From positions 32,001-96,000 of IMG/VR virus record IMGVR_UViG_3300028591_000110: a stretch of DNA of 64,000 nt, one strand, 5' to 3'. Under the pieces are notes generated by a model. The model searched no databases, was not told the DNA's origin, and saw nothing but the letters and a program-made list of their open reading frames with translations. Numbering within the stretch: position 1 is the stretch's first letter; the number at the start of each line of letters is the position of its first letter. The position numbers were made by a program, and so were the translations under genes. Shown piece by piece: positions 29,627-41,696 of the stretch. Source of the DNA: a virus. Taxonomy: Duplodnaviria > Caudoviricetes.

Positions 29627-32600
29627 TTGATTCAGAGAATCAATGTTTCAGACCCTCCGAGACGGAAGATTAAAATCGGATACTACGAGGAGAACGAGTT
29701 CCGCAAGGTCGTGTTTGACGTATCCGATTGGAGGGAGGCGTACCCGAACGGCACGGCGTCTATCATCTTCAAGCGTGCTGACGGCGAGGTATATCCGATT
29801 GTGCCGAGAACTGACAGCGACGGCAATCCGGTATTTGTGCCGACGACCACGGAGACATGCAAGGTAGGCGACTGCGAGTTCCAGCTTCAGTGGAAGTCCG
29901 GAAGTGTGGTCGGCAAGACCTGCAATCTCCAAATGTGCGTGGAATCGGCGATTGGCGAATACGGAGACGTGCCGACGGATACAACCGACGACTGGATCGC
30001 ACAGATTGTTGCCGCGACGAGTGAGATTGTCGGACAGGCGCAGCAGGCGCAGAGAGCCGCTGAGACGGCTGCATCTCAGGCGCAGAGCGCAGCGCAGGCA
30101 GCTTCGCAGAGTGCTTCTTCGGCGAATGCAAGCGTCGGCAATCTCTCGGAGCTGCAGACGACGAACAAAGGCACTGTTGTCGCCGCCGTGAATGAAGTTC
30201 ACGGCGAGGCTGCTGCGGCACAGTCTGCCGCTGCTTCTGCAGCTTCGGACGCCAGCAGCGCAAACGCAGGAGTAAACACACTGAACGGCAAGGTTGGAGA
30301 TCTGAGCAATCTTACTACGGATGCGAAAAACAATCTTGTTGCTGCCGTCAATGAGGTGGATGCTCATGCGGACGCAGCACAGACTGCTGCGAATCAGGCG
30401 GCGTCTGCTGCTGCGCAAGCTGCAACGGCTGCAAGTCAGGCTGCTTCCAGCGCAGACGCGGCAAGCGGAAAAGTTGGAGATCTCAGCTCGCTGCAAACGC
30501 AATCAAAGAATAATGTAGTTGCGGCGTTGAATGAGGTGCTTCAGCGAATCGGAAGTTCGCTTAATCTTGATCTTCAAATGGATACAACAAACGGCAAACT
30601 GTATATCATGCAAGAAGGTGTTAAGGTTGGCCTAGGCGCGACAATTGCAGCAGAATCCGGTCTGTTGTTTGACAGCGGATTTGTTTCAAAGGTTGATGAC
30701 AATGGAATGCCTTCTGAGAATTATTACTTGCATCTCACTAAAGAGGGTGTAGAGCTGTCTTTGGACGATTTTGTTCCGTTTGTTGTACACGGAGACGGAG
30801 GCGGCGGTGGTGGTGGTCTCGTTTTTGACAGCGGCGCTTTTGAAAAAATTGACGAGGACGGCAACGCTTCCGACAGCTATTATCTGCATCTGAAGAGTGG
30901 GGACGAGGATATTACCGGCTTTACTCCAATTGAAGTACCGGCTGAGATGGGAAGCGGAGGCGGAGGCGCCGCAGCAGGCGGATCAACACTTATTCTGCGG
31001 TCAAGAATGGACTCCAAGACGTTTTCAATTATGGATGCGCAGACGGAGCTTCAGATGCTGTTTACATGGTCAAGCATTGACAACGCGACAGAAGAACCAA
31101 CCGGGGACGGCACTGCAAGCTGGTATGTCAACGGCACTCGCGTTGCAACAACGACCGTTGAGCAAGGTGACGGATCTTTTAACATCCGCCCATACCTTAC
31201 AACCGGACAGGCTAACTCTGTTAAGTTGTCAATTGAGGATAACTATGGCGTTGTCCGTCCATACACATGGAACGTCACGGTAACTGCTTATACCCTGACA
31301 TGGAATGCTCCTGCTTTGGAGAACCATGGTGAATCTTCAGACTATCAGCTTCGACTTGTAGCAAGCGGCGTTGGGAATAAGACGCTTGTTGTAAAGGTCG
31401 ATAACACGGAAGTGTCACGGCAGAATGTGGCTACAAGCGGCAGAACTACTACCGTTACAATTCCTGCAAATAATCTCGGACATGGAGCACACACTATTAC
31501 TGCATGGCTTGAGGTTACAATTGATGGTGATGTGATTTCAACGAATCCGCTTCGTCACGTCGGTATTTGGAAGAGATCTTCTTCCGTTACGCCGATTGTT
31601 GCAATTTACGACAGCGAGATTACGATGAAACAGCTTGCCACATACGGCATTAGATACATGGTATATGATCCTGCGTACTCTCCTGTTAATACAGAGCTTA
31701 TCGTAGACGGGGATACTGTGGCTAATGTAAGTGTTGGCCGTGACATTCAGACTTGGGCATACCGCGCAACTGAGGTCGGACAGAAAACGCTTTCAGTGAA
31801 ATGCGGTGTCACTACGGCTTCTGTCAGCGTGACGGTCGAGGATCTTGGATATGATATTGCCCCTGTAACGGATGGTCTTGTTGTTGACTTTGATCCTTCC
31901 GGACACAGCAATTCGGAGTCAAACAGAACCAGCTTTGGCTACAAGGATGCAAACGACACTGTGCATCCGCTCATTTATTCTGACGGAACAACGCAGAACC
32001 CGCACGGGGTCGCCTATCTTCCGTTTGACTGGACAAACGGCGGCTTCCAGACCGATAATGACGGCGTGACGGCTTTTGTCGTTCGGCGCGGATGCAGGGC
32101 GTGGTTTGATCGCAGCCTCTTTGCGGACAATGCAAAGGCAAGCGGAAAAAACATTGAGCTTATTTTCAAGGCAACGAATGTCAGAGACTTTGACGCCGAG
32201 ATTATGCGCTGCCTGTCTAATAATATCGGACTGCAATTCTATGCGAACACCGGGTATTTCCGGTGTCAGTCTACTTCCGTAGACATGAAGTGGTGCGAGG
32301 ACTCGAAGGCGGAAATTTGCCTGAGCGTAGAGTCTGCGACAGGCAAGGATCAGCCGAGAATGGAGATGTGGGACAATGGCACGCCGAGCAGAGGTCGAGT
32401 CTATGACACGAATACCATGTGGCTGCAGAACGACCCGGACTATTTCTGCATCGGTTCGGATGAGGCGGATGTTTGGGTTTATCGAATCCGCGCGTATAGC
32501 GCTTATCTGACCGATTCTGAGGTAAGAGCAAACTTTATTGCTGATGCTCCAACGCCGGAAGAGGCAATCAACAGATTCGTCAGAAACAACATCTATACAG

Positions 32601-35600
32601 ATGACGGCAGCACAATCAGCATTCAGCGTCTGGTTGCGGCGGCGCCAGATCTGCATGTAATTGAGATCAGAACGGCTGGTTTCCCAAGCGATAAAAAGAA
32701 CTTTATCCCATGCAGAGTAGAGCACTGGCTTGGTTCCGGCGGGCCGTCGCATCACTGGTGGACGGATTCGAACGCAGGATTTGTCTTGCAGGGAACGTCG
32801 TCTCTAAACTACATCGAAAGCTGCGGCAACCTTGATATCAGCATGGTTAACGCCACCATGACAAACGAAAGCGGTCAGGTCATGAGTGACGGATATGCAA
32901 TGACATCAAACAGCATCCCGGTTAAATATTTCAACACGAAAGCAAACACCGCTTCGTCTGACAATGCGAACAACACGGTTTCTGCGCAAATTTTTGATGA
33001 ATTTGACCCGTTTGAGCCTCTTGCTAAAGTGCGTGATCCTCGCATCAGAGACTCTGTGGAAGGTCATCCGTGCGCTGTGTTTGTCACGAATACAAGCGAC
33101 ACCGCTTTTAGGTGTGGATCAGACAAGGCGCGAGATGTTCAGCCAGGAGAAACGATCTTGTATCTCGCCGGCGATATGAATAACTCCAAGCTGACAACGA
33201 ACGTATTTGGAGAGAGCGATATCGTTGGGACAGACGGCGACGGCATCGGCGTCTTCTGTGTGGAATTTATGGATAACGGCTATCCAAGATGCAAGTTCTT
33301 GGAAGAGGCAACCATGCTGAATGAGACATGGGACAACGGGAACGGAGGCCAGTTTGAGTTCAGATACCCAACCAAGAAGGCCATTGATCCGAGCATTCAG
33401 ACGCCTCGTCAACCGACAGACGCCATGAAGATCAAGTTTATTGAGATGCAGAACTGGCTCTGCAGACTAAACCCAGATCCAACGATTGCAAATGGGCGCA
33501 GTCTCGGCGGATCTATCAGATTGTTTAATCCGGCCACTGGACTTGAAGAGACATTCATGTATGATACGCCGACGTATCGCGGCTGTAAGTTCCGTAATGA
33601 AGTCGCGAACTATTTCCATATTGACAGTCTTGTTTATTATTATGTGTTTACAACGATCTTCTGCTGCGTAGACCAGCGCTCTAAGAATACGTTTGTTACA
33701 TATGAACCTGACAAGAACGGGGTGTGGAAGTTCGATTACAGAGCGTACTACGACGGAGACACGATGCTTGGCATCAACAACAAGGGCGCTCTAACGCTGG
33801 ATTATGGCGTTGAAGACACGGATGAAGTTGTTGGCGGCGACGGTATGGCTTTTAATGCTTTCGAATCTGTGCTCTGGTGCTTGGTAAGAGACTATCTGCC
33901 GGATTATTGTTCCGCTGAGTTTAATCGTCTTGAGAGCGCCGGGCTAATCAGCGAAAGCTTTTTGAATAACCGATGGGATACGCATCAGCGTATTCGCCCG
34001 GAGGCGCTGATGACAGAAGACTTCCGGAATAAATACGACGGGCCGCTTGTTAGAAACGGAACCACTCTATATTACGAATCCATGCAGAACGGCGAGAAAT
34101 ACAGCCAGCGGCATGGATTTTTCCATTTCCAAGTCCCTTATATGCAGAGCAAATACCGCAGTGGACGAGCAAAGCAAAACAGTCTGCTTTTGGACGCTTA
34201 TTATTCTGCAACAGGTGCAATTGAAGCCGCTGCTTCTGTGGAGATTACGCCTTATATGGATATGTATATCACGATGCAGTGCGACAACTTTGGAACGGTT
34301 TCTGTAAGAGCGAAGAAGGGCGTCCCGACACGGGTAACTGTGTCAGGAAACGGAGGATCTGCCCCTGCGGGCGATACCGCTACGCAGATTTATAACTGCC
34401 AGTGGATTACGTCGTTCGATTCTTTGGCGCAATTCTATACGCAGCAGTTTGCCGGCACTTTGACAAAGCTTCGTTATCTGCCGCTCGGCAGTTCTGTTTC
34501 CGGATATCAGAACAGAAACCTGACAACGCTCGGCTCTACGGATTTGCCGATGCTTGAGTATTTGAACCTTGGCGGCCTTGTAAATCTTGAAACGAACATC
34601 GATCTTAGCAGATGTCCGTTCCTTGAGGAAGTTTACGCAAACGGCGCAGGTATCACAGGTATTACGCTTGCGCGTGGCGCAGCGATCGAGATTTTGCAGC
34701 TCCCGGCGGTTTCGCGTTTGATTGCGCTGGATTTGCAAAAGCTGCTCCCCGCAAACTTTACTTTGGATATGAGTAACCTGAGCTTGCTGCACGTTGAAAA
34801 CAGCCCCGGCGTCAATACGCAGAGCATCGTCCAGAATGCAACCGAGCTTGCATACGGTCGTCTGATTGGCGTGAACTGGAACATGGACAACCCAGATCCG
34901 GTTATGGCGTTGATCGGAAAGACCGGTCTGAACGAAGAGAGCGAGGCGGAAGGCACGTTTGTTTTGACCGGTGCAGTAACCTTTGCTGCTATTTCTCAAA
35001 ACGAGTACAACCGTCTGCATGCCGCATTCCCGAATTTGACGATCAACTATACGTCGCTTCTTTCAGAACATACGGTGCGATTCTACAATTGGGATGGCAC
35101 ACCGTTGTGGGAGGAATCTGTTCGTCACGGCGGAACGGCACCGAACCCAATTGTAACCGGAGACATTCAAACTCCGACGCGCCCAGCGTCCGGCCAATAC
35201 GAATATGTCTATCGTTACTGGTCTGAGTCTCTGGATAATGTCGTTGAGGATTTGGATGTTTACGCAGATTATCTTGCACAGGAGCGCACACTCACTGTTC
35301 GCTGGCATGACGCCGCAGGCGGCGTCATGACGCAATATACAAAGACCTGCAGATATGGGCAGGGCGTAACGTATACCGGCCCGGATATGCCGGACAGGGG
35401 CAGCGGCGCAAACAAGGAATACTGGATGGGCTGGGATAAGCCAACCACAAATGTAACAGAAGATCTTGACGTGTATCCGCAGTATGTTCTTCCGACTACG
35501 CCGCTTGGAAAGCCATTGACGTATGACTATGCGTATTCCGATGATCCAAATGATATTTCTGCATACACGTTGGCGGAGTTCTGGGGCGCTCTGAAGAGCG

Positions 35601-36271
35601 ATAATCCTGCTGCGTATCTTGCAGAGCATGACAAGATCAAGATTGTTATGCCGGCGAGCAAACCAAACAGCAATATTACAGACACTACCATTGAGCTGAA
35701 GGTTGCCGGATTTAACCGCTTCAAACTTTCTGATGGTTCCGGTAATTTCGCGAAGACGGTATTTGTAATGTGCAACTGCCTGAATGCTACTCGCGCGATG
35801 AATGGATCGAATACGAATGCTGGCGGCTGGCCTGCTACGGCTATGCGTTCGTTCCTGAACAACAGCTTGATTAAGGACTTCCCGATTCAATGGCGCAGAA
35901 TGATTCAGCAGGTCGAAGTATTGTCTACGGCAGGTGCTTCATCTACGGAGATTGTAAAGAGCAACGACTATCTGTTCCTTCCTTCCTACACGGAGGTTGG
36001 ATTTGGAACGACAGATCCGTACATTAACGAGATTGACTCTGCTGTGTACGGAAGCGATATGACATACGCAAAGTGGCCAGTCTTTACCGACAATGCATCG
36101 CGTATTAAAAGAATCGGCGGTTCCAACGGAACCGCAACTATCTGGTGGTTGCGCTCTCCGATTGCGGAGGCCGGTACTTTTTGGTATATGCTTACCTCCG
36201 GCAGTCGCGATAACGGGAACTATTATACATCCAATTCAGTTAGGGGCGTCGCGTTCGGCTTCTGCATTTGA
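29627..36271 (+). CDS. Large receptor-binding/tail fibre protein; DGR target with C-terminal CLec-like (DUF6273-type) variable domain
   Basis: BppU-like N-terminus, Ala-rich fibre repeats, LRR-like segment, C-terminal YLFLPS..EV...WWLRSP...GVAFGFCI*; directly upstream of avd/RT. Confidence 0.85.
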   Translation: MIQRINVSDPPRRKIKIGYYEENEFRKVVFDVSDWREAYPNGTASIIFKRADGEVYPIVPRTDSDGNPVFVPTTTETCKVGDCEFQLQWKSGSVVGKTCNLQMCVESAIGEYGDVPTDTTDDWIAQIVAATSEIVGQAQQAQRAAETAASQAQSAAQAASQSASSANASVGNLSELQTTNKGTVVAAVNEVHGEAAAAQSAAASAASDASSANAGVNTLNGKVGDLSNLTTDAKNNLVAAVNEVDAHADAAQTAANQAASAAAQAATAASQAASSADAASGKVGDLSSLQTQSKNNVVAALNEVLQRIGSSLNLDLQMDTTNGKLYIMQEGVKVGLGATIAAESGLLFDSGFVSKVDDNGMPSENYYLHLTKEGVELSLDDFVPFVVHGDGGGGGGGLVFDSGAFEKIDEDGNASDSYYLHLKSGDEDITGFTPIEVPAEMGSGGGGAAAGGSTLILRSRMDSKTFSIMDAQTELQMLFTWSSIDNATEEPTGDGTASWYVNGTRVATTTVEQGDGSFNIRPYLTTGQANSVKLSIEDNYGVVRPYTWNVTVTAYTLTWNAPALENHGESSDYQLRLVASGVGNKTLVVKVDNTEVSRQNVATSGRTTTVTIPANNLGHGAHTITAWLEVTIDGDVISTNPLRHVGIWKRSSSVTPIVAIYDSEITMKQLATYGIRYMVYDPAYSPVNTELIVDGDTVANVSVGRDIQTWAYRATEVGQKTLSVKCGVTTASVSVTVEDLGYDIAPVTDGLVVDFDPSGHSNSESNRTSFGYKDANDTVHPLIYSDGTTQNPHGVAYLPFDWTNGGFQTDNDGVTAFVVRRGCRAWFDRSLFADNAKASGKNIELIFKATNVRDFDAEIMRCLSNNIGLQFYANTGYFRCQSTSVDMKWCEDSKAEICLSVESATGKDQPRMEMWDNGTPSRGRVYDTNTMWLQNDPDYFCIGSDEADVWVYRIRAYSAYLTDSEVRANFIADAPTPEEAINRFVRNNIYTDDGSTISIQRLVAAAPDLHVIEIRTAGFPSDKKNFIPCRVEHWLGSGGPSHHWWTDSNAGFVLQGTSSLNYIESCGNLDISMVNATMTNESGQVMSDGYAMTSNSIPVKYFNTKANTASSDNANNTVSAQIFDEFDPFEPLAKVRDPRIRDSVEGHPCAVFVTNTSDTAFRCGSDKARDVQPGETILYLAGDMNNSKLTTNVFGESDIVGTDGDGIGVFCVEFMDNGYPRCKFLEEATMLNETWDNGNGGQFEFRYPTKKAIDPSIQTPRQPTDAMKIKFIEMQNWLCRLNPDPTIANGRSLGGSIRLFNPATGLEETFMYDTPTYRGCKFRNEVANYFHIDSLVYYYVFTTIFCCVDQRSKNTFVTYEPDKNGVWKFDYRAYYDGDTMLGINNKGALTLDYGVEDTDEVVGGDGMAFNAFESVLWCLVRDYLPDYCSAEFNRLESAGLISESFLNNRWDTHQRIRPEALMTEDFRNKYDGPLVRNGTTLYYESMQNGEKYSQRHGFFHFQVPYMQSKYRSGRAKQNSLLLDAYYSATGAIEAAASVEITPYMDMYITMQCDNFGTVSVRAKKGVPTRVTVSGNGGSAPAGDTATQIYNCQWITSFDSLAQFYTQQFAGTLTKLRYLPLGSSVSGYQNRNLTTLGSTDLPMLEYLNLGGLVNLETNIDLSRCPFLEEVYANGAGITGITLARGAAIEILQLPAVSRLIALDLQKLLPANFTLDMSNLSLLHVENSPGVNTQSIVQNATELAYGRLIGVNWNMDNPDPVMALIGKTGLNEESEAEGTFVLTGAVTFAAISQNEYNRLHAAFPNLTINYTSLLSEHTVRFYNWDGTPLWEESVRHGGTAPNPIVTGDIQTPTRPASGQYEYVYRYWSESLDNVVEDLDVYADYLAQERTLTVRWHDAAGGVMTQYTKTCRYGQGVTYTGPDMPDRGSGANKEYWMGWDKPTTNVTEDLDVYPQYVLPTTPLGKPLTYDYAYSDDPNDISAYTLAEFWGALKSDNPAAYLAEHDKIKIVMPASKPNSNITDTTIELKVAGFNRFKLSDGSGNFAKTVFVMCNCLNATRAMNGSNTNAGGWPATAMRSFLNNSLIKDFPIQWRRMIQQVEVLSTAGASSTEIVKSNDYLFLPSYTEVGFGTTDPYINEIDSAVYGSDMTYAKWPVFTDNASRIKRIGGSNGTATIWWLRSPIAEAGTFWYMLTSGSRDNGNYYTSNSVRGVAFGFCI
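30133..30545 (+). repeat. Three fibre repeats VG(N/D)LS.L.T..K...VAA.NEV with Ala/Ser/Gln spacers
   Basis: Seen in the translation. Confidence 0.7.
36132..36262 (+). repeat. DGR variable region (VR) of the target gene
   Basis: Identical over 131 bp to cassette 3 (37307-37437); lies at the 3' end of the gene. Confidence 0.95.
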
Positions 36272-36290
36272 CCGAAACGACCGAAAAACC

Positions 36291-36386
36291 GGGGCGCGAA
36301 CAGCGCCCCTGCCAATCTGCGTCAAGCACGCAGATAAAAATAGAAGAGGGCAGCGAAATATCTGCCCTCTCTCGCCGCGAAGCGGC
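36291..36386 (+). promoter_or_regulatory. Cluster of four hairpins downstream of VR (candidate DGR target-recognition cruciform/terminator)
   Basis: GGGGCGC/GCGCCCC 36291-309; ATCTGCGT/ACGCAGAT 36315-335; AGAGGGCAG/CTGCCCTCT 36345-370; GCCGC/GCGGC 36374-386. Confidence 0.65.
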
Positions 36387-36425
36387 AAAATTTTGATAAA
36401 AATTCTGAGAAATCGAATATTACAG

Positions 36426-36454
36426 TAGGCATTCAATCTCGAACATGGTAGAAT
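36426..36454 (+). promoter_or_regulatory. Candidate promoter for the avd-array-RT transcript
   Basis: TAGGCA-17 bp-TAGAAT with extended -10 TG at 36446-47. Confidence 0.45.
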
Positions 36455-36472
36455 ACCACAGAGAAAGGAGGA

Positions 36473-36958
36473 GTGCCTATGCCTCATGACAAAAGTAAGA
36501 CATCATACTCGAACCGGCCATTGCCGGAATCACAACCGAAAAAGAAAGAGCCGCCGCACTATTTGCTGCGAGCACAGGAATTGCAAGCCTATACGATCAA
36601 CACATGCAGAGACATCAACAGCAACCCAGACAGGGGCGGCAAAGGATTGTCGTTCTATCTGCTTGTGCCGATGGGAAATCTTGCGCAGGAGATCACAGCC
36701 CATTGCGCTGCTGCGGACGACAACTATCCGACATGCAGACAGGACTGGATTGATCGAAGAAGAGACTTATATGCGGCACGACGAGCAGCAAAGGAACTAA
36801 GTAGTATGCTGACTGTGGCATTACAGGTCAAAAGTTTTAATGTCAGCGAACATGTTGTAGAGGAGTGGGCGAAGAAGATCAATAGGGTGATTGCGCTATT
36901 GAATAAGACGATAAAAAGTCATGAAGAAAACAAACAGCTTTTGGAAGTAGACTATTAA
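36473..36958 (+). CDS. avd: Avd-like accessory variability determinant (four-helix bundle)
   Basis: 161 aa basic helical protein between target and template/RT; strong RBS AAGGAGG; W...I......L..  C-terminal helix. Confidence 0.7.
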   Translation: MPMPHDKSKTSYSNRPLPESQPKKKEPPHYLLRAQELQAYTINTCRDINSNPDRGGKGLSFYLLVPMGNLAQEITAHCAAADDNYPTCRQDWIDRRRDLYAARRAAKELSSMLTVALQVKSFNVSEHVVEEWAKKINRVIALLNKTIKSHEENKQLLEVDY

Positions 36959-39686
36959 GGTCATGAACTAAATCACGACGCAACTATCTGGTGGGTGCGC
37001 TCTCCGAGGTCGGCGAGTTCCGTCGGGTTTTGGTCGGCGGCTACCGGCGGCAGCACGTTGGGCGGCCCCGGCTCTGACTCAGCAGGCTCGTGGTGGGGCG
37101 TCGCGTTCGGCTTTTCTTCGGGTTTTGTCTTATCATGCGACGTGCTGTCTGGTGGTTGCGCTCTCCGCGCGTAGATGATACTACTTTTTCAAAGTTTGTA
37201 CCGGTCTCTGCGGCTGGATCTTCAAGTGTTCTGAACCATCAAGATCCGGCATCTGCCTCGAATGGCGTCGCGTTCGGCTAATCTTCTAGGTTGTGCTCTA
37301 ATAACGCCGCAACTATCTGGTGGTTGCGCTCTCCGATTGCGGAGGCCGGTACTTTTTGGTATATGCTTACCTCCGGCAGTCGCGATAACGGGAACTATTA
37401 TACATCCAATTCAGTTAGGGGCGTCGCGTTCGGCTTCCTTTGCGTGGTCATGTTCTGATTAGTTATGCAGGCGTATGGTGGTTGCGCTCTCCTGCTAGTG
37501 GCGTGGCATCACGATTCATAAGCCCGTCTAGCAGTGGGTCTTTGGATCAGTGGGGTGCGCAGTCATCTATGGGCGTCGCGTTCGGCTTCAAAATATGGTC
37601 ATACTCTTTAGAGATGATGCGCTTTCTGTGGTTGCGCTCTCCGATTGGTACATCCAATGCTGTTTGCTGGGCTAGTGATGGTTCCGGCGCACAAAAAGAT
37701 GTCTCTTGGAACGGGGCTGCGTATCCGCAGGGCGTCTCGTTCGGCTTCTCAGAATGCAGGCTATGTCCCGAGCGAGTTTTCGCCTAGCTGGTGGTTGCGC
37801 TCTCCGTTGACGGGGAACGCTGATAGGTTTGTGAACGCGAACACGAATGGTTCGTATAACAACAACAACGCCAACAACAGCAACGGCGTCGCGTTCGGCA
37901 TCTTTCTAGGTCTTGTTCTAATCGTTTGAACGCACTATCTGGTGGTTGCGCTCTCCGATTTCTGGGAGTGCGTCTTCCTTCCCGTATGTTTCTACTAGCG
38001 GATCGCAGGATTCGCGTAACGCCAGTGGAAACAACGGGGTTGGTTGTGGCGTCGCGTTCGGCGTCTTTTCAAGGTCTTGCTCTGTATTTACGCGATTATT
38101 CTGGTGGTTGCGCTCTCCGTGGACTACTGCGTCTGAGATGGTTGATATGGTCACGGAAGGCGGCGCTCGCAATGCTAACACAAGCAATAGCTACAAAGCG
38201 AGCAGTTATCACGGCGTCGCGTTCGGCATCTTTCTAGGTTTTGCCCTAAGATGCTTCGTCATTTTGGTGGTTGCGCTCTCCGCGTTCTTCAACTGACAAT
38301 GCGTTCTTAAACGTGTTGGCTACAGGCGGGGGCGATTGGAATGTCAGGGATGCAAACAACACCTATGGCGTCGCGTTCGGCTTTTCTTAGGTTGTACCCC
38401 AAAAAGTGCGGCGCACTAGCTGGTGGTTGCGCTCTCCGTGGAATGGTCGTTCTGATTATTTCGAGGTTCTTAGCTCTGACGGTTCTCGCAATAACAGCAC
38501 GTCAGGTGTTTCAGGGGACGCGCATAACGCAGGCAGGGCACAAGGCGTCGCGTTCGGCATCTCTTTTGGCAGTGCTCTAATGCGTCTCGCTCTGCATCTG
38601 GTGGTTGCGCTCTCCGTATACGGCTTATTCCGATATGATTTGTGGAGTTTTGGACAGCGGTCGTTTTACGGGTTATCTCAATAACGCTCGCGCTTCCACC
38701 CAGAATGGCGTCGCGTTCGGCTTCGGTCATGGTTGTGTCCTGATTTTGCGTCGCCTTCGCCGGTGGTTGCGCTCTCCGACGGCTGTTCGCTCGGATCTCA
38801 TTGTTCCGGTCAGCGCCGCCGGCGGCACAGTCAACAACTATAATGTTCATGGCGCTCAAGCAAGCTACGGTTATGGCGTCGCGTTCGGCTTAATTAAATT
38901 GGTCTTGCCTCATCATTGATTTGCATGTGTTGGTGGTTGCGCTCTCCGCATGTTGGAGTGTCTACTTATTTTCGCTTTTCAAACGGGAACGGATCGCCAA
39001 ATATACAAGCAGACTATAACGCGACAAGTGCGTATGGCGTCGCGTTCGGCTAATCTTCTAGGTTGTGCTCATAATCGTGACGCAACTAGCTGGTGGTTGC
39101 GCTCTCCGGCTTCTTGGGCTTCCACCTTATGTATGGTTGTGCGAGATAATGGCTTGGCTATTTCCCAAAGCGGCTATGCGAATCTTGGCACTCCGTCCGG
39201 GGCTCAGGGCGTCGCGTTCGGCTTTCTTTTGATGGGCTGTACCTTTGATGCGATTGCCGCCATGGTGGTTGCGCTCCCCGCGCCTGAATGATTCTTGGTT
39301 TCATGGCTGCGCTACTGGCGGAGTGTGGGCGAATTTTAATTCGCTGCCATCTGGAGCGGGCGTCGCGTTCGGCTTATATTATGGCTGTGTTCTATGAGCG
39401 GCGAGACTATCTGGTGGTTGCGCTCTCCACGATCCTCCTCTGAGTCGAGCGGGTATCAGGTTCTCACATCTGGTTCTCCGTCTTGGCAGACAGATGCGTG
39501 GAATCAGGGCGCCGGCGTCGCGTTCGGCATCGATTAGGGCAAGGTTATACTCTGTTGTTTATGGCGTTTTTCTGGTGGTTGCGCTCTCCGCATTCTGTTT
39601 ACGAGGGCTATTTCTTTCGCGCGTCATCTGCGGGTGATCGCGATTGGCAGTCTGGCGGAAACCCAAACACCGGCGTCGCGTTCGGC
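36959..39686 (+). repeat. Array of 17 DGR template-like cassettes
   Basis: Cores from TGGTGGTTGCGCTCTCCG to GGCGTCGCGTTCGGC (minor anchor variants in a few units) at 36989-37111, 37150-37278, 37318-37434, 37476-37586, 37626-37745, 37789-37899, 37940-38062, 38102-38227, 38265-38381, 38421-38558, 38599-38721, 38761-38889, 38931-39050, 39091-39222, 39263-39373, 39412-39528, 39573-39686; all lengths are multiples of 3 with no stops; linkers ~37-44 nt. Confidence 0.95.
37789..37899 (+). ncRNA. Cassette 6: classical AAC-rich template repeat (TR)
   Basis: 10 AAC + 1 AAT among 26 variable codons (LTGNADRFVNANTNGSYNNNNANNSN). Confidence 0.8.
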
Positions 39687-39945
39687 TTCACACGGGCGAC
39701 AGAGTAGAGTATTTGAAAACAGACCGTATGAAGAGAAGGAGGGCATGGCCTTTCTCATGTCAAAAGCATGAGATAAAACGCCTCCAAGTTGGCGTGGGTT
39801 GATCCGCGTCACAGATGACCTGCAGGCGGACGCTATCGAGCTTGGTATCGCTTGACGGTGATGCGATATTTCAAGCCTGCAGGCTACGCAGCTAGTGGAA
39901 CCGTCCGAAAAGCTGTACAGGGAGAGAATATAAATAACATAGGTG
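39687..39945 (+). ncRNA. DGR spacer (Sp) structured RNA region
   Basis: Non-coding stretch between last cassette and RT; hairpins TCTCATGT/GCATGAGA, ACGCC/GGCGT, CCTGCAGGC/GCCTGCAGG, GTATCGC/GCGATAT; AGGGCATGGCC is complementary to the cassette leaders. Confidence 0.65.
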
Positions 39946-39952
39946 ATTTGTT

Positions 39953-41209
39953 TTGACTGGTACACAGAGAAGAAAACAGAAAATCTATGAGCGGCGCGTC
40001 GCAAGGCGGGCTGCTAAACGAGCTGAACGCAATAAGACCTACGGCAGTTTTTATTGGGTGTTTCAGCACGGAAATGTTGACCGTGGTTTCAGAGACATTC
40101 GCAAGAAGCTGGTAAAGTGCGCTGACGGCATTTGGTACTGTGTGCACGCTCCGATTAACGAAGTACACACATGTAAGAAGTTAATGAACGGGACGTACAA
40201 ATTCCGTCCTCTTCGCAAAAAGCATATTAAGCAGCGAGGAAAACCGAGGGATATTGGGATCGGAGCCGCAGAGGACAGGGTTGTTTTAAGTACGCTGACA
40301 ACGCACTGCTTGATGCCGATGATTGAACCAAGACTAATCAACACATGCACAGCCGGTCGTCCAAACATGGGGCCGGAGGTCGCGATGCTTCAGCTTGAAG
40401 AAATGCTGAAGGATCACTACCGAGAGCACGGCACGGACGGGTATGTTCTAATCTTCGACATCCGTAATTACTACGGCAGTATTGACCGGGATAAACTTGG
40501 CGTCATGCTGCGTAAAGTAATCAAAGATCAGCGCTTGATTCGGCTTATCGAGGATTCAAATGACGTCGCGATTCCGGACAGCAGGATCGGCATCAATCTT
40601 GGCAGCTCTACTTCTACGATGCTTGCTGCGCTTTATATGAGCGGAGTGGATCATTATATGAAAGAAGTTTTGCGGCTCAGATACTACGGGCGCCATGGGG
40701 ATGATGGGTTTATCATTCATCATGATAAGGAGTTTCTGCTTTCCGTTCTGGACGCGCTGCGCGAAAAGACTTCTGAGCTTGGTTTGGAATTGCATCCGAA
40801 GAAAACGCAGATTATCAAACTTACCAAAGGGTTCCGATGGCTGAAAGTGAAGTGGAAACTGAAAGAAACCGGATACGTTGTGAAGAAAATGAATCACGAT
40901 ATCGTGACGCGAGACAGCAAAAAGATGAAGAAATGCCTTGCTTTAGAGGCAGAAGGTCTTACTACTATGAATTATATTCGCAATTCTGTGTGGAAGGGCT
41001 GGCTGAACAAGTCGAAGAATCCGGATCTTATCAGGCAAAAGCCGATCCGCAAAGGCTTCAAAAAGCGGTTTAGATATGATAATTACTTTGTCAGGATAAA
41101 AATGGCGAACAGGTATTACAGCCTGTTCGGTGAGTGGGAGGGCTGTAATAGAGATGTATTTTATCAAATTATTGGAGAACGACGAAGTAGTCGGAGCCGA
41201 GCAGCTTGA
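39953..41209 (+). CDS. DGR-type reverse transcriptase with atypical motifs
   Basis: RGKPRDI, EDRVV, YVLIFDIRNYYGSID, GINLGSSTS, YYGRHGDDG, LGLELHPKKTQI, GFRWLK; 418 aa; no maturase or endonuclease domain seen. Confidence 0.9.
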   Translation: MTGTQRRKQKIYERRVARRAAKRAERNKTYGSFYWVFQHGNVDRGFRDIRKKLVKCADGIWYCVHAPINEVHTCKKLMNGTYKFRPLRKKHIKQRGKPRDIGIGAAEDRVVLSTLTTHCLMPMIEPRLINTCTAGRPNMGPEVAMLQLEEMLKDHYREHGTDGYVLIFDIRNYYGSIDRDKLGVMLRKVIKDQRLIRLIEDSNDVAIPDSRIGINLGSSTSTMLAALYMSGVDHYMKEVLRLRYYGRHGDDGFIIHHDKEFLLSVLDALREKTSELGLELHPKKTQIIKLTKGFRWLKVKWKLKETGYVVKKMNHDIVTRDSKKMKKCLALEAEGLTTMNYIRNSVWKGWLNKSKNPDLIRQKPIRKGFKKRFRYDNYFVRIKMANRYYSLFGEWEGCNRDVFYQIIGERRSSRSRAA

Positions 41210-41696
41210 AGTGCTTGAGTATGTTCGACAAGATACAAACGGAAATAATATTCGATGCTCTGTGCTTTCGGCGCAGGGCATCATTTCATTAGATGGCGGT
41301 TCGATCTATCAACTTGACGGCAAGCCCGCAATGGTCGGCGGGTATAAGATCGCTGTGTTTATTGATGGCGACGAATACAGCGAGATTATCCAGGAGCTTC
41401 AGGACGAAGATCCGGATGACGACATTCCCGCCAGCGACGAGGCTTTGACGCGGGAGGAGCTGACTGCGAAAGTAGCAAAGCTTGAGGAAATGAACACCAT
41501 GCTTACAGGAATGCTCCTCGAAAACCGAGAGGACAGCATGAAAGCGTCCAAGGTATACAGCGAGGGCGATCTCATCATTGTAAACGGCGAGCTGTATAAG
41601 GTTCTTGCAAAAATCGCAAACGGTTCTTTGCTGACTGTAGGCACAAATGTAAAACAAACAACTATTGCGGCTGAGATTGCCGCATTAAGTGTATGA
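41154..41696 (+). CDS. Hypothetical tail-fibre-associated protein
   Basis: Acidic ORF overlapping the RT 3' end; C-terminal Y..GD.I..NG.LYKV module. Confidence 0.6.
   Translation: MYFIKLLENDEVVGAEQLEVLEYVRQDTNGNNIRCSVLSAQGIISLDGGSIYQLDGKPAMVGGYKIAVFIDGDEYSEIIQELQDEDPDDDIPASDEALTREELTAKVAKLEEMNTMLTGMLLENREDSMKASKVYSEGDLIIVNGELYKVLAKIANGSLLTVGTNVKQTTIAAEIAALSV

Follow-up and report, generated by a model that had tools for sequence, protein, structure and literature searches.

How does a phage element built from the parts of a diversity-generating retroelement (DGR) come to express a variable region (VR) that equals one of its own silent templates base for base? The question is raised by a locus in a 64,000-nucleotide stretch of Caudoviricetes DNA (the window), which spans positions 32,001–96,000 of the IMG/VR virus record IMGVR_UViG_3300028591_000110 (135,563 bp; CheckV completeness 100%). 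On the plus strand the locus consists, in order, of a tail-fibre-like gene, a GC-rich hairpin, an Avd-like accessory gene, 17 silent cassettes, a 266-nt spacer, a gene for a 418-residue reverse transcriptase (RT), and an endolysin gene. DGRs are defined by one template and by adenine mutagenesis. We consider it reasonably probable that the element is a DGR-derived template library that is used by near-faithful retrohoming.

The target of variation is the C-terminal end of a 2214-residue protein encoded by an open reading frame (ORF) at 29627–36271 (+). Residues 2058–2206 match DUF6273 (Pfam, E 2.1e-17), and the protein terminates in WWLRSP-IAEAGTFWYMLTSGSRDNGNYYTSNSVR-GVAFGFCI followed by the stop codon, a WWLRSP...GVAFGFCI ending that is common to its homologues. 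The expressed VR is a 131-nt block at the 3′ end of this ORF (36132–36262, +) in which an 84-nt core (36161–36244) is framed by an 18-nt anchor encoding WWLRSP (36143–36160) and a 15-nt anchor encoding GVAFG (36245–36259). A repeat search and a string-equality script both identify this block as a direct repeat of 37307–37437 (+), which is the third cassette of the array (37318–37434) with its flanks; all 131 positions are the same (100%), and none of the 23 adenines in the block, 20 of which fall in the core, has changed. The original prediction of a perfect 131-bp copy of an internal cassette lacking adenine substitutions is thus borne out, with one correction of labels: the interval under which it was given, 37307–37437, is the silent donor and not the expressed copy. 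Its placement of the ends of identity, 11 nt before WW and 3 nt after GVAFG, is accurate as well. These flanking matches are similarity that existed beforehand and not necessarily the ends of a transferred tract; cassette 1 shares 10 nt of upstream sequence with the target despite an unrelated core, which leaves the core as the informative part of the block. Among 50 cassettes from 9 loci, core identities have a median of 37%, and the 100% match of the VR to cassette 3 is followed by values of 81% (cassette 6 against a cassette of locus L264) and 54%, so that the identity is no chance event.

A trivial explanation is that the repeat was mis-resolved during assembly or that polishing homogenised two similar copies, given that the genome is metagenome-assembled and that 131-nt repeats can confuse assemblers. 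The two copies nevertheless sit in distinct flanks, and a second assembly record agrees: the ENA contig L267 (135,556 bp, MEGAHIT k141), which may share source reads with the IMG/VR record, is 100% identical to the window along 10,480 bp that include both copies, and its k of 141 exceeds the length of the repeat. A Logan contig from an independent run (L269; SRR8436538, k=31 graph) is 100% identical to window positions 36233–37291, and it starts 30 nt short of the end of the identity, as expected because a k=31 graph must branch at such a repeat. There was also little to homogenise, as no two distinct cassettes of the window array are more than 49% identical in their cores. Repeat collapse, a possibility raised with the original prediction, is refuted by these observations, and we regard an assembly artefact of any kind as extremely improbable.

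The cassettes occupy 36989–39686 (+), and each comprises a WWLRSP anchor, a unique core, and a GVAFG anchor. Their lengths range from 111 to 138 nt, always a multiple of three and always free of stop codons, and they are separated by spacers of 37–44 nt. The 18-nt and 15-nt anchors that bound every cassette are those of the VR, and across the 135,563-bp genome they occur exactly 18 times, all on the plus strand (17 cassettes and the VR). We compared this architecture with that of loci and contigs L009–L020, L259, L260, L262, L264, and L267–L273. Cassettes upstream of an RT gene are found in L018 (at least seven), in L273 (five), and in L017 and L020, whose contigs end within the last cassette; L259, L260, and L264 are metagenome fragments with further arrays. 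L009–L016 were rejected as arrays, since they carry the WWLRSP anchor in one to three copies each and lack the 3′ anchor. Within the window array, the spacers after cassettes 2 and 13 (37259–37298 and 39031–39070) are 98% identical over 40 nt, far above any other spacer pair, pointing to a duplication or conversion that took place recently within the array; the right end of L269 falls in the first of these spacers.

A sister phage provides a second state of the VR. Its RT (P0026, from sample SRR30574120) is 98% identical to that of the window at the amino acid level, and its locus is represented by two contigs of one run, L268 and L273, that both start with the 30-mer AAGCTACGTTTATGGCGTCGCGTTCGGCTT. 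In L268 the 30-mer is followed by CTGCATTTGA, which contains the fibre stop codon, and then by the hairpin, avd, and cassettes 1′ and 2′. In L273 it is followed by AATTAAATCGG..., the spacer after cassette 12, and then by cassettes 13′–17′, the spacer RNA, and the RT gene. The shared stretch ends in GGCTT, one base before that of L269 and exactly where the cassette 12 spacer and the fibre flank diverge; it includes 13 nt of core that are specific for cassette 12, differ at one base from cassette 12 of the window (38761–38889, +), and contain four adenines. Because the 30-mer is common to both contigs, the sister VR ends with the core of cassette 12′ and not with that of cassette 3. The VR slot has thus been swapped between the strains, with cassette 3 in the window and cassette 12′ in the sister.

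Array content, which had been suggested as a means of recognising cassette gain, is partly shared between the two strains: cassettes 13–15 and 17 are orthologous, and cassettes 1, 2, and 16 have been replaced wholesale. In the orthologous cassettes together with the visible end of cassette 12, 16 of 358 core nucleotides differ, compared with 48 of 1257 in the RT gene, and there is no clear adenine bias. The orthologous cassettes therefore diverge at the background rate, which argues against adenine hypermutation. The replaced cassettes (window 36989–37278 and 39412–39528; L268:759–1061 and L273:551–694) have unrelated cores of other length between strains that are 96–97% identical in the flanks. 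Some process evidently writes new cores into the array, and by this comparison the cassettes behave like alleles in stable storage, of which whole units are replaced from time to time.

The closest points of reference for the transfer itself are canonical DGRs. Loci L019, L262, and L271 share the gene order of the window (target, avd, spacer RNA) but one AAC-rich template region (TR) each, and RT relatives of 25–31% identity (P0006 and P0009) are found in single-TR loci with the same target domain. Two TR/VR pairs are clean. All 17 mismatches in L019 fall at TR adenines, affecting 17 of 41 (41%), and all 14 in L262 do so too, affecting 14 of 29 (48%). L271 has the WWLRSP...GVAFGFCI scaffold and a 36-codon AAC-rich TR that resembles cassette 6 of the window. 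With adenine-only TR/VR differences in loci of its relatives, the window RT belongs to the DGR RT lineage, and these sequence relationships show the window element to be a descendant of canonical adenine-mutagenic DGRs. In L271 (549–1568) and in L272, the VR exceeds the TR by one codon, and the ORF after the spacer RNA encodes a small membrane protein instead of an RT, so the RT of L271 must lie elsewhere.

This descent raises the possibility that the window element is still a canonical mutagenic DGR, in which the identity of VR and cassette 3 is the consensus over rare VR variants or reflects mutagenesis of only a few percent per adenine. Its close relatives are mutagenic, an AAC-rich cassette has been retained and conserved in the array, and the RT has kept counterparts of two residues that promote adenine mutagenesis (see below). 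Set against these points, the assembled VRs of the canonical relatives differ from their TRs at 41–48% of adenines, and at such rates zero change at 20–23 adenines has a probability of 2e-5 to 3e-7. The unmutated sequence is the one recovered both at k=141 and at k=31 by assemblies of at least two runs, and the sister VR and cassette 12′ share their exact 30-mer, including the four core adenines. Persistence of canonical mutagenesis is accordingly quite improbable in our judgement. These comparisons support the original proposal of a transfer that was recent and faithful, linked the VR to an internal cassette, and departed from canonical pairs; the proposal gains strength from the cassette 12′ state of the sister VR and from the derived active-site motifs of the RTs that accompany arrays.

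The composition of the cassettes likewise points away from mutagenic use. Cassette 6 (37789–37899, +) is the sole AAC-rich unit and has a TR-like design, with 10 AAC codons and no adenine at a third codon position; its sequence marks it as orthologous to the single TR of the canonical relatives, and cassette 6 and canonical TRs have no or almost no third-position adenines. In the remaining cassettes 58 of 320 adenines are at third codon positions and a few AAA, AAG, or AGA codons occur, and to judge by codon usage these cassettes are not designed for adenine mutagenesis. Cassette 6 with its flanks (37714–37905) is 81–86% conserved in L264:1464–1655, from a phage whose Avd is only 66% identical and in which the neighbouring cassettes are unrelated; the TR-like unit seems to be the stable member of the array. 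We also considered whether any cassette or VR could be an A-to-N derivative of an AAC-rich cassette, and rejected this on comparison of the L264 VR with its five cassettes and of L270 with orthologues in L259 (both distant arrays), where differences involve all base types and include synonymous sites.

If the cassettes are not substrates for mutagenesis, are they templates for the RT at all? The region between the array and the RT gene (39687–39952, +) matches the Rfam family RT-2 (RF03077; 72.3 bits, E 1.3e-15, 39690–39945), and 16 of 47 predicted pairs show compensatory changes across four loci. Its most conserved block is an invariant site, AGGGCATGGCC (39740–39750, +), which is complementary to a set of 11-mers that lie upstream of the cassettes. 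The first, GGTCATGAACT, directly follows the avd stop codon (36959–36969, +), and all 17 cassettes have one such 11-mer 28–31 nt before WW. Each pairs at 9 to 11 of its 11 positions with the spacer (Sp) RNA site when G-U pairs are allowed. No other Sp offset pairs as well as this site (mean 9.29 pairs, reached by 0 of 200 shuffles), and in a shuffled-site control the observed mean of 10.06 pairs was reached by 0 of 300. Since the 17 copies are homologous, complementarity in all of them is by itself weak evidence. In the canonical relatives, however, the duplex is kept through changes on both strands: the upstream strand GGTTTCGGGCT is matched by the Sp strand AGCCCGAGACC in L271, GGGTTATGGGT by ATCCATAACCC in L019, and GGGTTGCCACT by AGTGGTAATCC in L262. 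In L271, L019, and the window, the Sp strand lies directly 3′ of a conserved GAAGGA.

In the Bordetella phage BPP-1, cDNA synthesis requires an 11-bp duplex, termed the ‘cPRT Stop’, that the 3′ end of avd forms with Sp positions 59–70 and that determines where synthesis ends (bioRxiv 10.1101/2023.10.23.563531). By analogy, the upstream:Sp duplex of the window looks like the counterpart of this element and may serve the same function, in which case every cassette looks like a complete template unit. It is mainly the presence of this strand at all 17 units that favours copying by the RT, and movement of information from the array to the VR, as recombination would not need it.

The direction of transfer deserves separate comment, since the identity carries none in itself. 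A successful VR could have been archived into position 3 of the array, as was offered as an alternative in the original prediction, and the wholesale differences at cassettes 1, 2, and 16 between strains otherwise 96–97% identical do indicate that information enters the array. For cassette 3 itself such reverse flow is disfavoured: this unit lies in ordinary, TR-type array flanks with its own upstream stop strand, and the GC hairpin typical of DGR targets is present at the VR only. That hairpin (36291–36309, +; 7-bp stem and 5-nt loop, 31 nt 3′ of the VR) is conserved in L264 and L268, has analogues 3′ of the VRs in L271 and L019, and follows none of the 17 cassettes; it is a candidate DGR target-recognition element by analogy, with a folding z-score that is weak for the window itself. 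The sister orthologues of cassettes 13–15 and 17, about 96% identical and diverging at the background rate, also behave as stable templates. Archiving as the source of the VR–cassette 3 identity is therefore very improbable, and for the array in general the three replaced cassettes keep that proposal conceivable.

The RT gene (39953–41209, +; Pfam RVT_1; phrog_1423, E 8e-57) encodes the only RT of the genome. Its active-site motifs, LGSSTST and HGDD, are representative of the RTs found with arrays (the window, L273, L020, L017, and L018), which have LGxxxST and (H/Y)GDD where their relatives have LGSxxSQ and YMDD. The sequence [I/V/L]GxxxSQ is a signature of DGR RTs (PMC7826257), and it is absent from all five array-type RTs owing to replacement of the Gln by Thr. 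We surveyed these motifs in 160 RTs by regular-expression parsing, which left 34 unparsed; the nearest 150 clusters contributed 126 parsed representatives, of which 114 carry [ILV]GxxxSQ and 97 carry YMDD. Among RTs with locus context, arrays accompany one RT clade only. The motif changes of this clade are suggestive of altered fidelity. The closest 50%-cluster representative, P0029 (40% identity, E 6e-79), has VGPIFSQ and YGDD, and by these motifs may be an intermediate that combines the DGR SQ motif with the array-type GDD.

Both the RT and the Avd-like protein are maintained by selection. The RT genes of the window and the sister strain differ at 38 codons synonymously and at 8 non-synonymously, the avd genes of the window and L268 at 14 synonymously and at none non-synonymously, and by these counts both proteins are under purifying selection. 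The Avd-like gene (36479–36958, +) encodes 159 residues from its ATG. An AlphaFold model of the protein is a four-helix bundle (pLDDT 81), and the top PDB matches in a fold search (2rld, 2gsc, 8ub7_B, and 4dwl_D; TM to target 0.72–0.89, with weak E-values) are all Avd-family chains, with BPP-1 Avd and a DGR ribonucleoprotein among the matches. Profile matches are weak (phrog_3206, ‘Avd protein of DGR’, E 1e-4; TIGR02436, E 1e-3, below the cut-off), and a PDB sequence-profile search with the Avd alignment gave no match. For the VR domain, Pfam yields DUF6273 only and the AlphaFold model of the last 215 residues is unusable (pLDDT 40).

Either a high-fidelity RT or recombinational gene conversion had been proposed to explain the exact copy, and the second has to be weighed with care. 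In that scenario, host RecA or a phage ERF-family protein would convert the VR through the shared anchors, and the RT would be idle in the swap and perhaps serve cassette 6 only. An exact copy is what DNA-templated conversion is expected to produce; the cassettes are silent, in frame, and directly oriented; and whole cassettes have been exchanged between near-identical strains, so that replacement at the DNA level does occur in the array. Among the other products of the phage is an ERF-family single-strand annealing protein (106555–107031, minus strand, of the 135,563-bp record, outside the window; 48.6 bits, above the cut-off), and no match to RecA or RecT was found in the phage. Anchors of 18 and 15 nt are, on the other hand, short for RecA-type recombination, and cassette 12 adds 1–2 nt of flank identity to them. 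Recombination also leaves unexplained why arrays are found only beside an intact and selected RT, Avd, and Sp RNA, why all 17 cassettes and not cassette 6 alone keep the Sp-complementary upstream strand, and why the RTs of arrays form a clade with active-site changes of its own. Of the two proposed routes, use of the RT is thus favoured, because every cassette keeps its upstream strand and because the RT and Avd are under purifying selection; recombination is feasible through the ERF protein, and we rate it as unlikely.

Several observations weigh against near-faithful retrohoming from the array. The ERF protein makes conversion independent of the RT feasible, although it could equally help to integrate a cDNA. 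Arg74 and Ile181 of bRT promote adenine mutagenesis, and a Q187P substitution left misincorporation unchanged (PMC7826257); counterparts of the first two residues (Arg99 and Leu216) are conserved in the window RT, and in view of both facts the altered motifs are no proof of high fidelity. Unlike its neighbours, the AAC-rich cassette 6 has been conserved (81%), as would be sensible if some adenine mutagenesis persists. The second state of the VR is visible along 30 nt only. For the 11-mers of the more distant arrays L018, L259, and L270, complementarity falls short of significance; the latter two arrays were compared with the Sp site of the window, their own Sp lying outside their contigs. Finally, the single Sp is as far as 2.4 kb from internal cassettes whose 3′ ends would need priming, and a generic duplex-energy scan of the spacers against Sp gave no signal (z from −1.9 to +1.3, at inconsistent sites).

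With these points taken into account, the mechanism that we favour for the template library would run as follows. A single template repeat would have been turned into a library of 17 complete units, each of which has an open in-frame core between the two anchors that the VR also carries, together with its own 11-nt strand for pairing with the one invariant Sp site. A complex of RT, Avd, and Sp RNA would copy one unit, primed internally where needed, into cDNA with little or no adenine misincorporation. This cDNA would then replace the VR core by way of the 18-nt and 15-nt anchors, possibly aided by the phage ERF protein, which could act in cDNA integration as well as in conversion. The VR would consequently be an exact copy of the last unit used, which would be cassette 3 in the window and cassette 12′ in the sister strain, and the receptor-binding tip would be switched among stored, pre-tested variants without random mutagenesis. 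An extended version of this scheme, which we hold to be unlikely, is an addressable memory in which the Sp RNA picks any of the 17 units through its upstream strand, a faithful RT writes that unit, cassette 6 explores new sequences mutagenically, and useful variants are written back to the array. Write-back would account for whole cassettes that differ between strains 96–97% identical.

The element thus shares much with the DGR of BPP-1 (mtd, avd, TR, Sp, and brt). Both have a target with a C-terminal VR, an Avd or Avd-like four-helix bundle, a template, a structured Sp RNA, and an RT; the VR and template have invariant ends, a GC hairpin follows the VR, and the upstream:Sp duplex matches the ‘cPRT Stop’. 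The nearest RT relatives are, moreover, adenine-mutagenic DGRs acting on the same tail-fibre domain (L019 and L262). The window differs in having 17 unrelated templates instead of one, a VR that equals one of them with no adenine substitutions, templates that, cassette 6 apart, lack the AAC design, and an RT of the LGxxxST and (H/Y)GDD type in place of [ILV]GxxxSQ and YMDD. Two defining features of DGRs, adenine-specific differences and the SQ motif, fail here, and diversity would arise from choice among stored sequences and not from misincorporation.

A second comparison is with the antigenic variation systems of Neisseria (pilE/pilS), Borrelia (vlsE/vls), and Treponema (tprK). There too, one expression site is accompanied by nearby promoterless, in-frame, divergent cassettes with conserved flanks, transfer is non-reciprocal and leaves the donor intact, and arrays vary strongly between strains. 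These bacterial systems, however, act on surface antigens through DNA recombination without RT, Avd, or template RNA, and their transfers are usually segmental and give mosaics, whereas the VR of this phage tail fibre matches a single cassette along its whole core and a selected RT, Avd, and Sp RNA persist at the locus. Shufflons and invertible tail-fibre segments (the R64 shufflon, Mu Gin, and P1 Cin) resemble the window in switching the C-terminal end of an adhesin or fibre among pre-encoded alternatives. They need inverted repeats and a site-specific recombinase, and in the window the repeats are all direct and the donor is copied; shufflon-type inversion is ruled out, as no pair of inverted repeats was found within 33000–41000 and all 18 anchors lie on one strand.

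The machinery of a DGR (RT, Avd, Sp RNA, and VR) seems to have become a device for switching between stored receptor-binding tips that are already functional. If this is correct, retrohoming can be both faithful and template-selective, and the source of error-proneness in DGR RTs can be approached by comparing array-type RTs (ST, H/YGDD) with their mutagenic sisters (SQ, YMDD). Phages would join the organisms that use silent-cassette variation, in this case by way of RNA, and software that requires A-biased TR/VR mismatches in order to call a DGR would, by its very design, overlook such elements. Should the addressable-memory version hold, RT-driven cassette switching with RNA addressing would have its first example here, and the locus would also exemplify a natural DGR that archives its successful variants. 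A literature search on DGRs with multiple or tandem templates or silent cassettes returned no description of such an array, an absence that is provisional given incomplete full-text coverage.

The clade is rare. It comprises one complete genome, L267 (100% identical to the window across the 10.5 kb compared), and about 12 short metagenome contigs. A scan with the 14-mer 3′ anchor against IMG/VR and GTDB genomes gave chance matches only; the anchor-gap-anchor pattern had no match in these two collections and identified two array fragments in metagenomes. RT-profile searches of IMG/VR and GTDB did not find relatives, and INPHARED phages gave no match.

Two further features were noted in the course of these comparisons. 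In a SPAdes contig from a more distant lineage (L270:1–715), the fibre scaffold leads into a WWLRSP...GVAFG core and then, with no GFCI stop, into an array spacer and the next cassettes; this path is most simply explained by the assembler crossing a repeat shared by VR and cassette in a third lineage. Downstream of the window array, an ORF at 41154–41696 (+) overlaps the 3′ end of the RT gene and has no match in Pfam or PHROG. Array-type loci retain it 3′ of the RT (99%, 70%, and 54% identity), its conservation in canonical relatives is weaker (27–32%), and it may be part of the tail module or of the retroelement.

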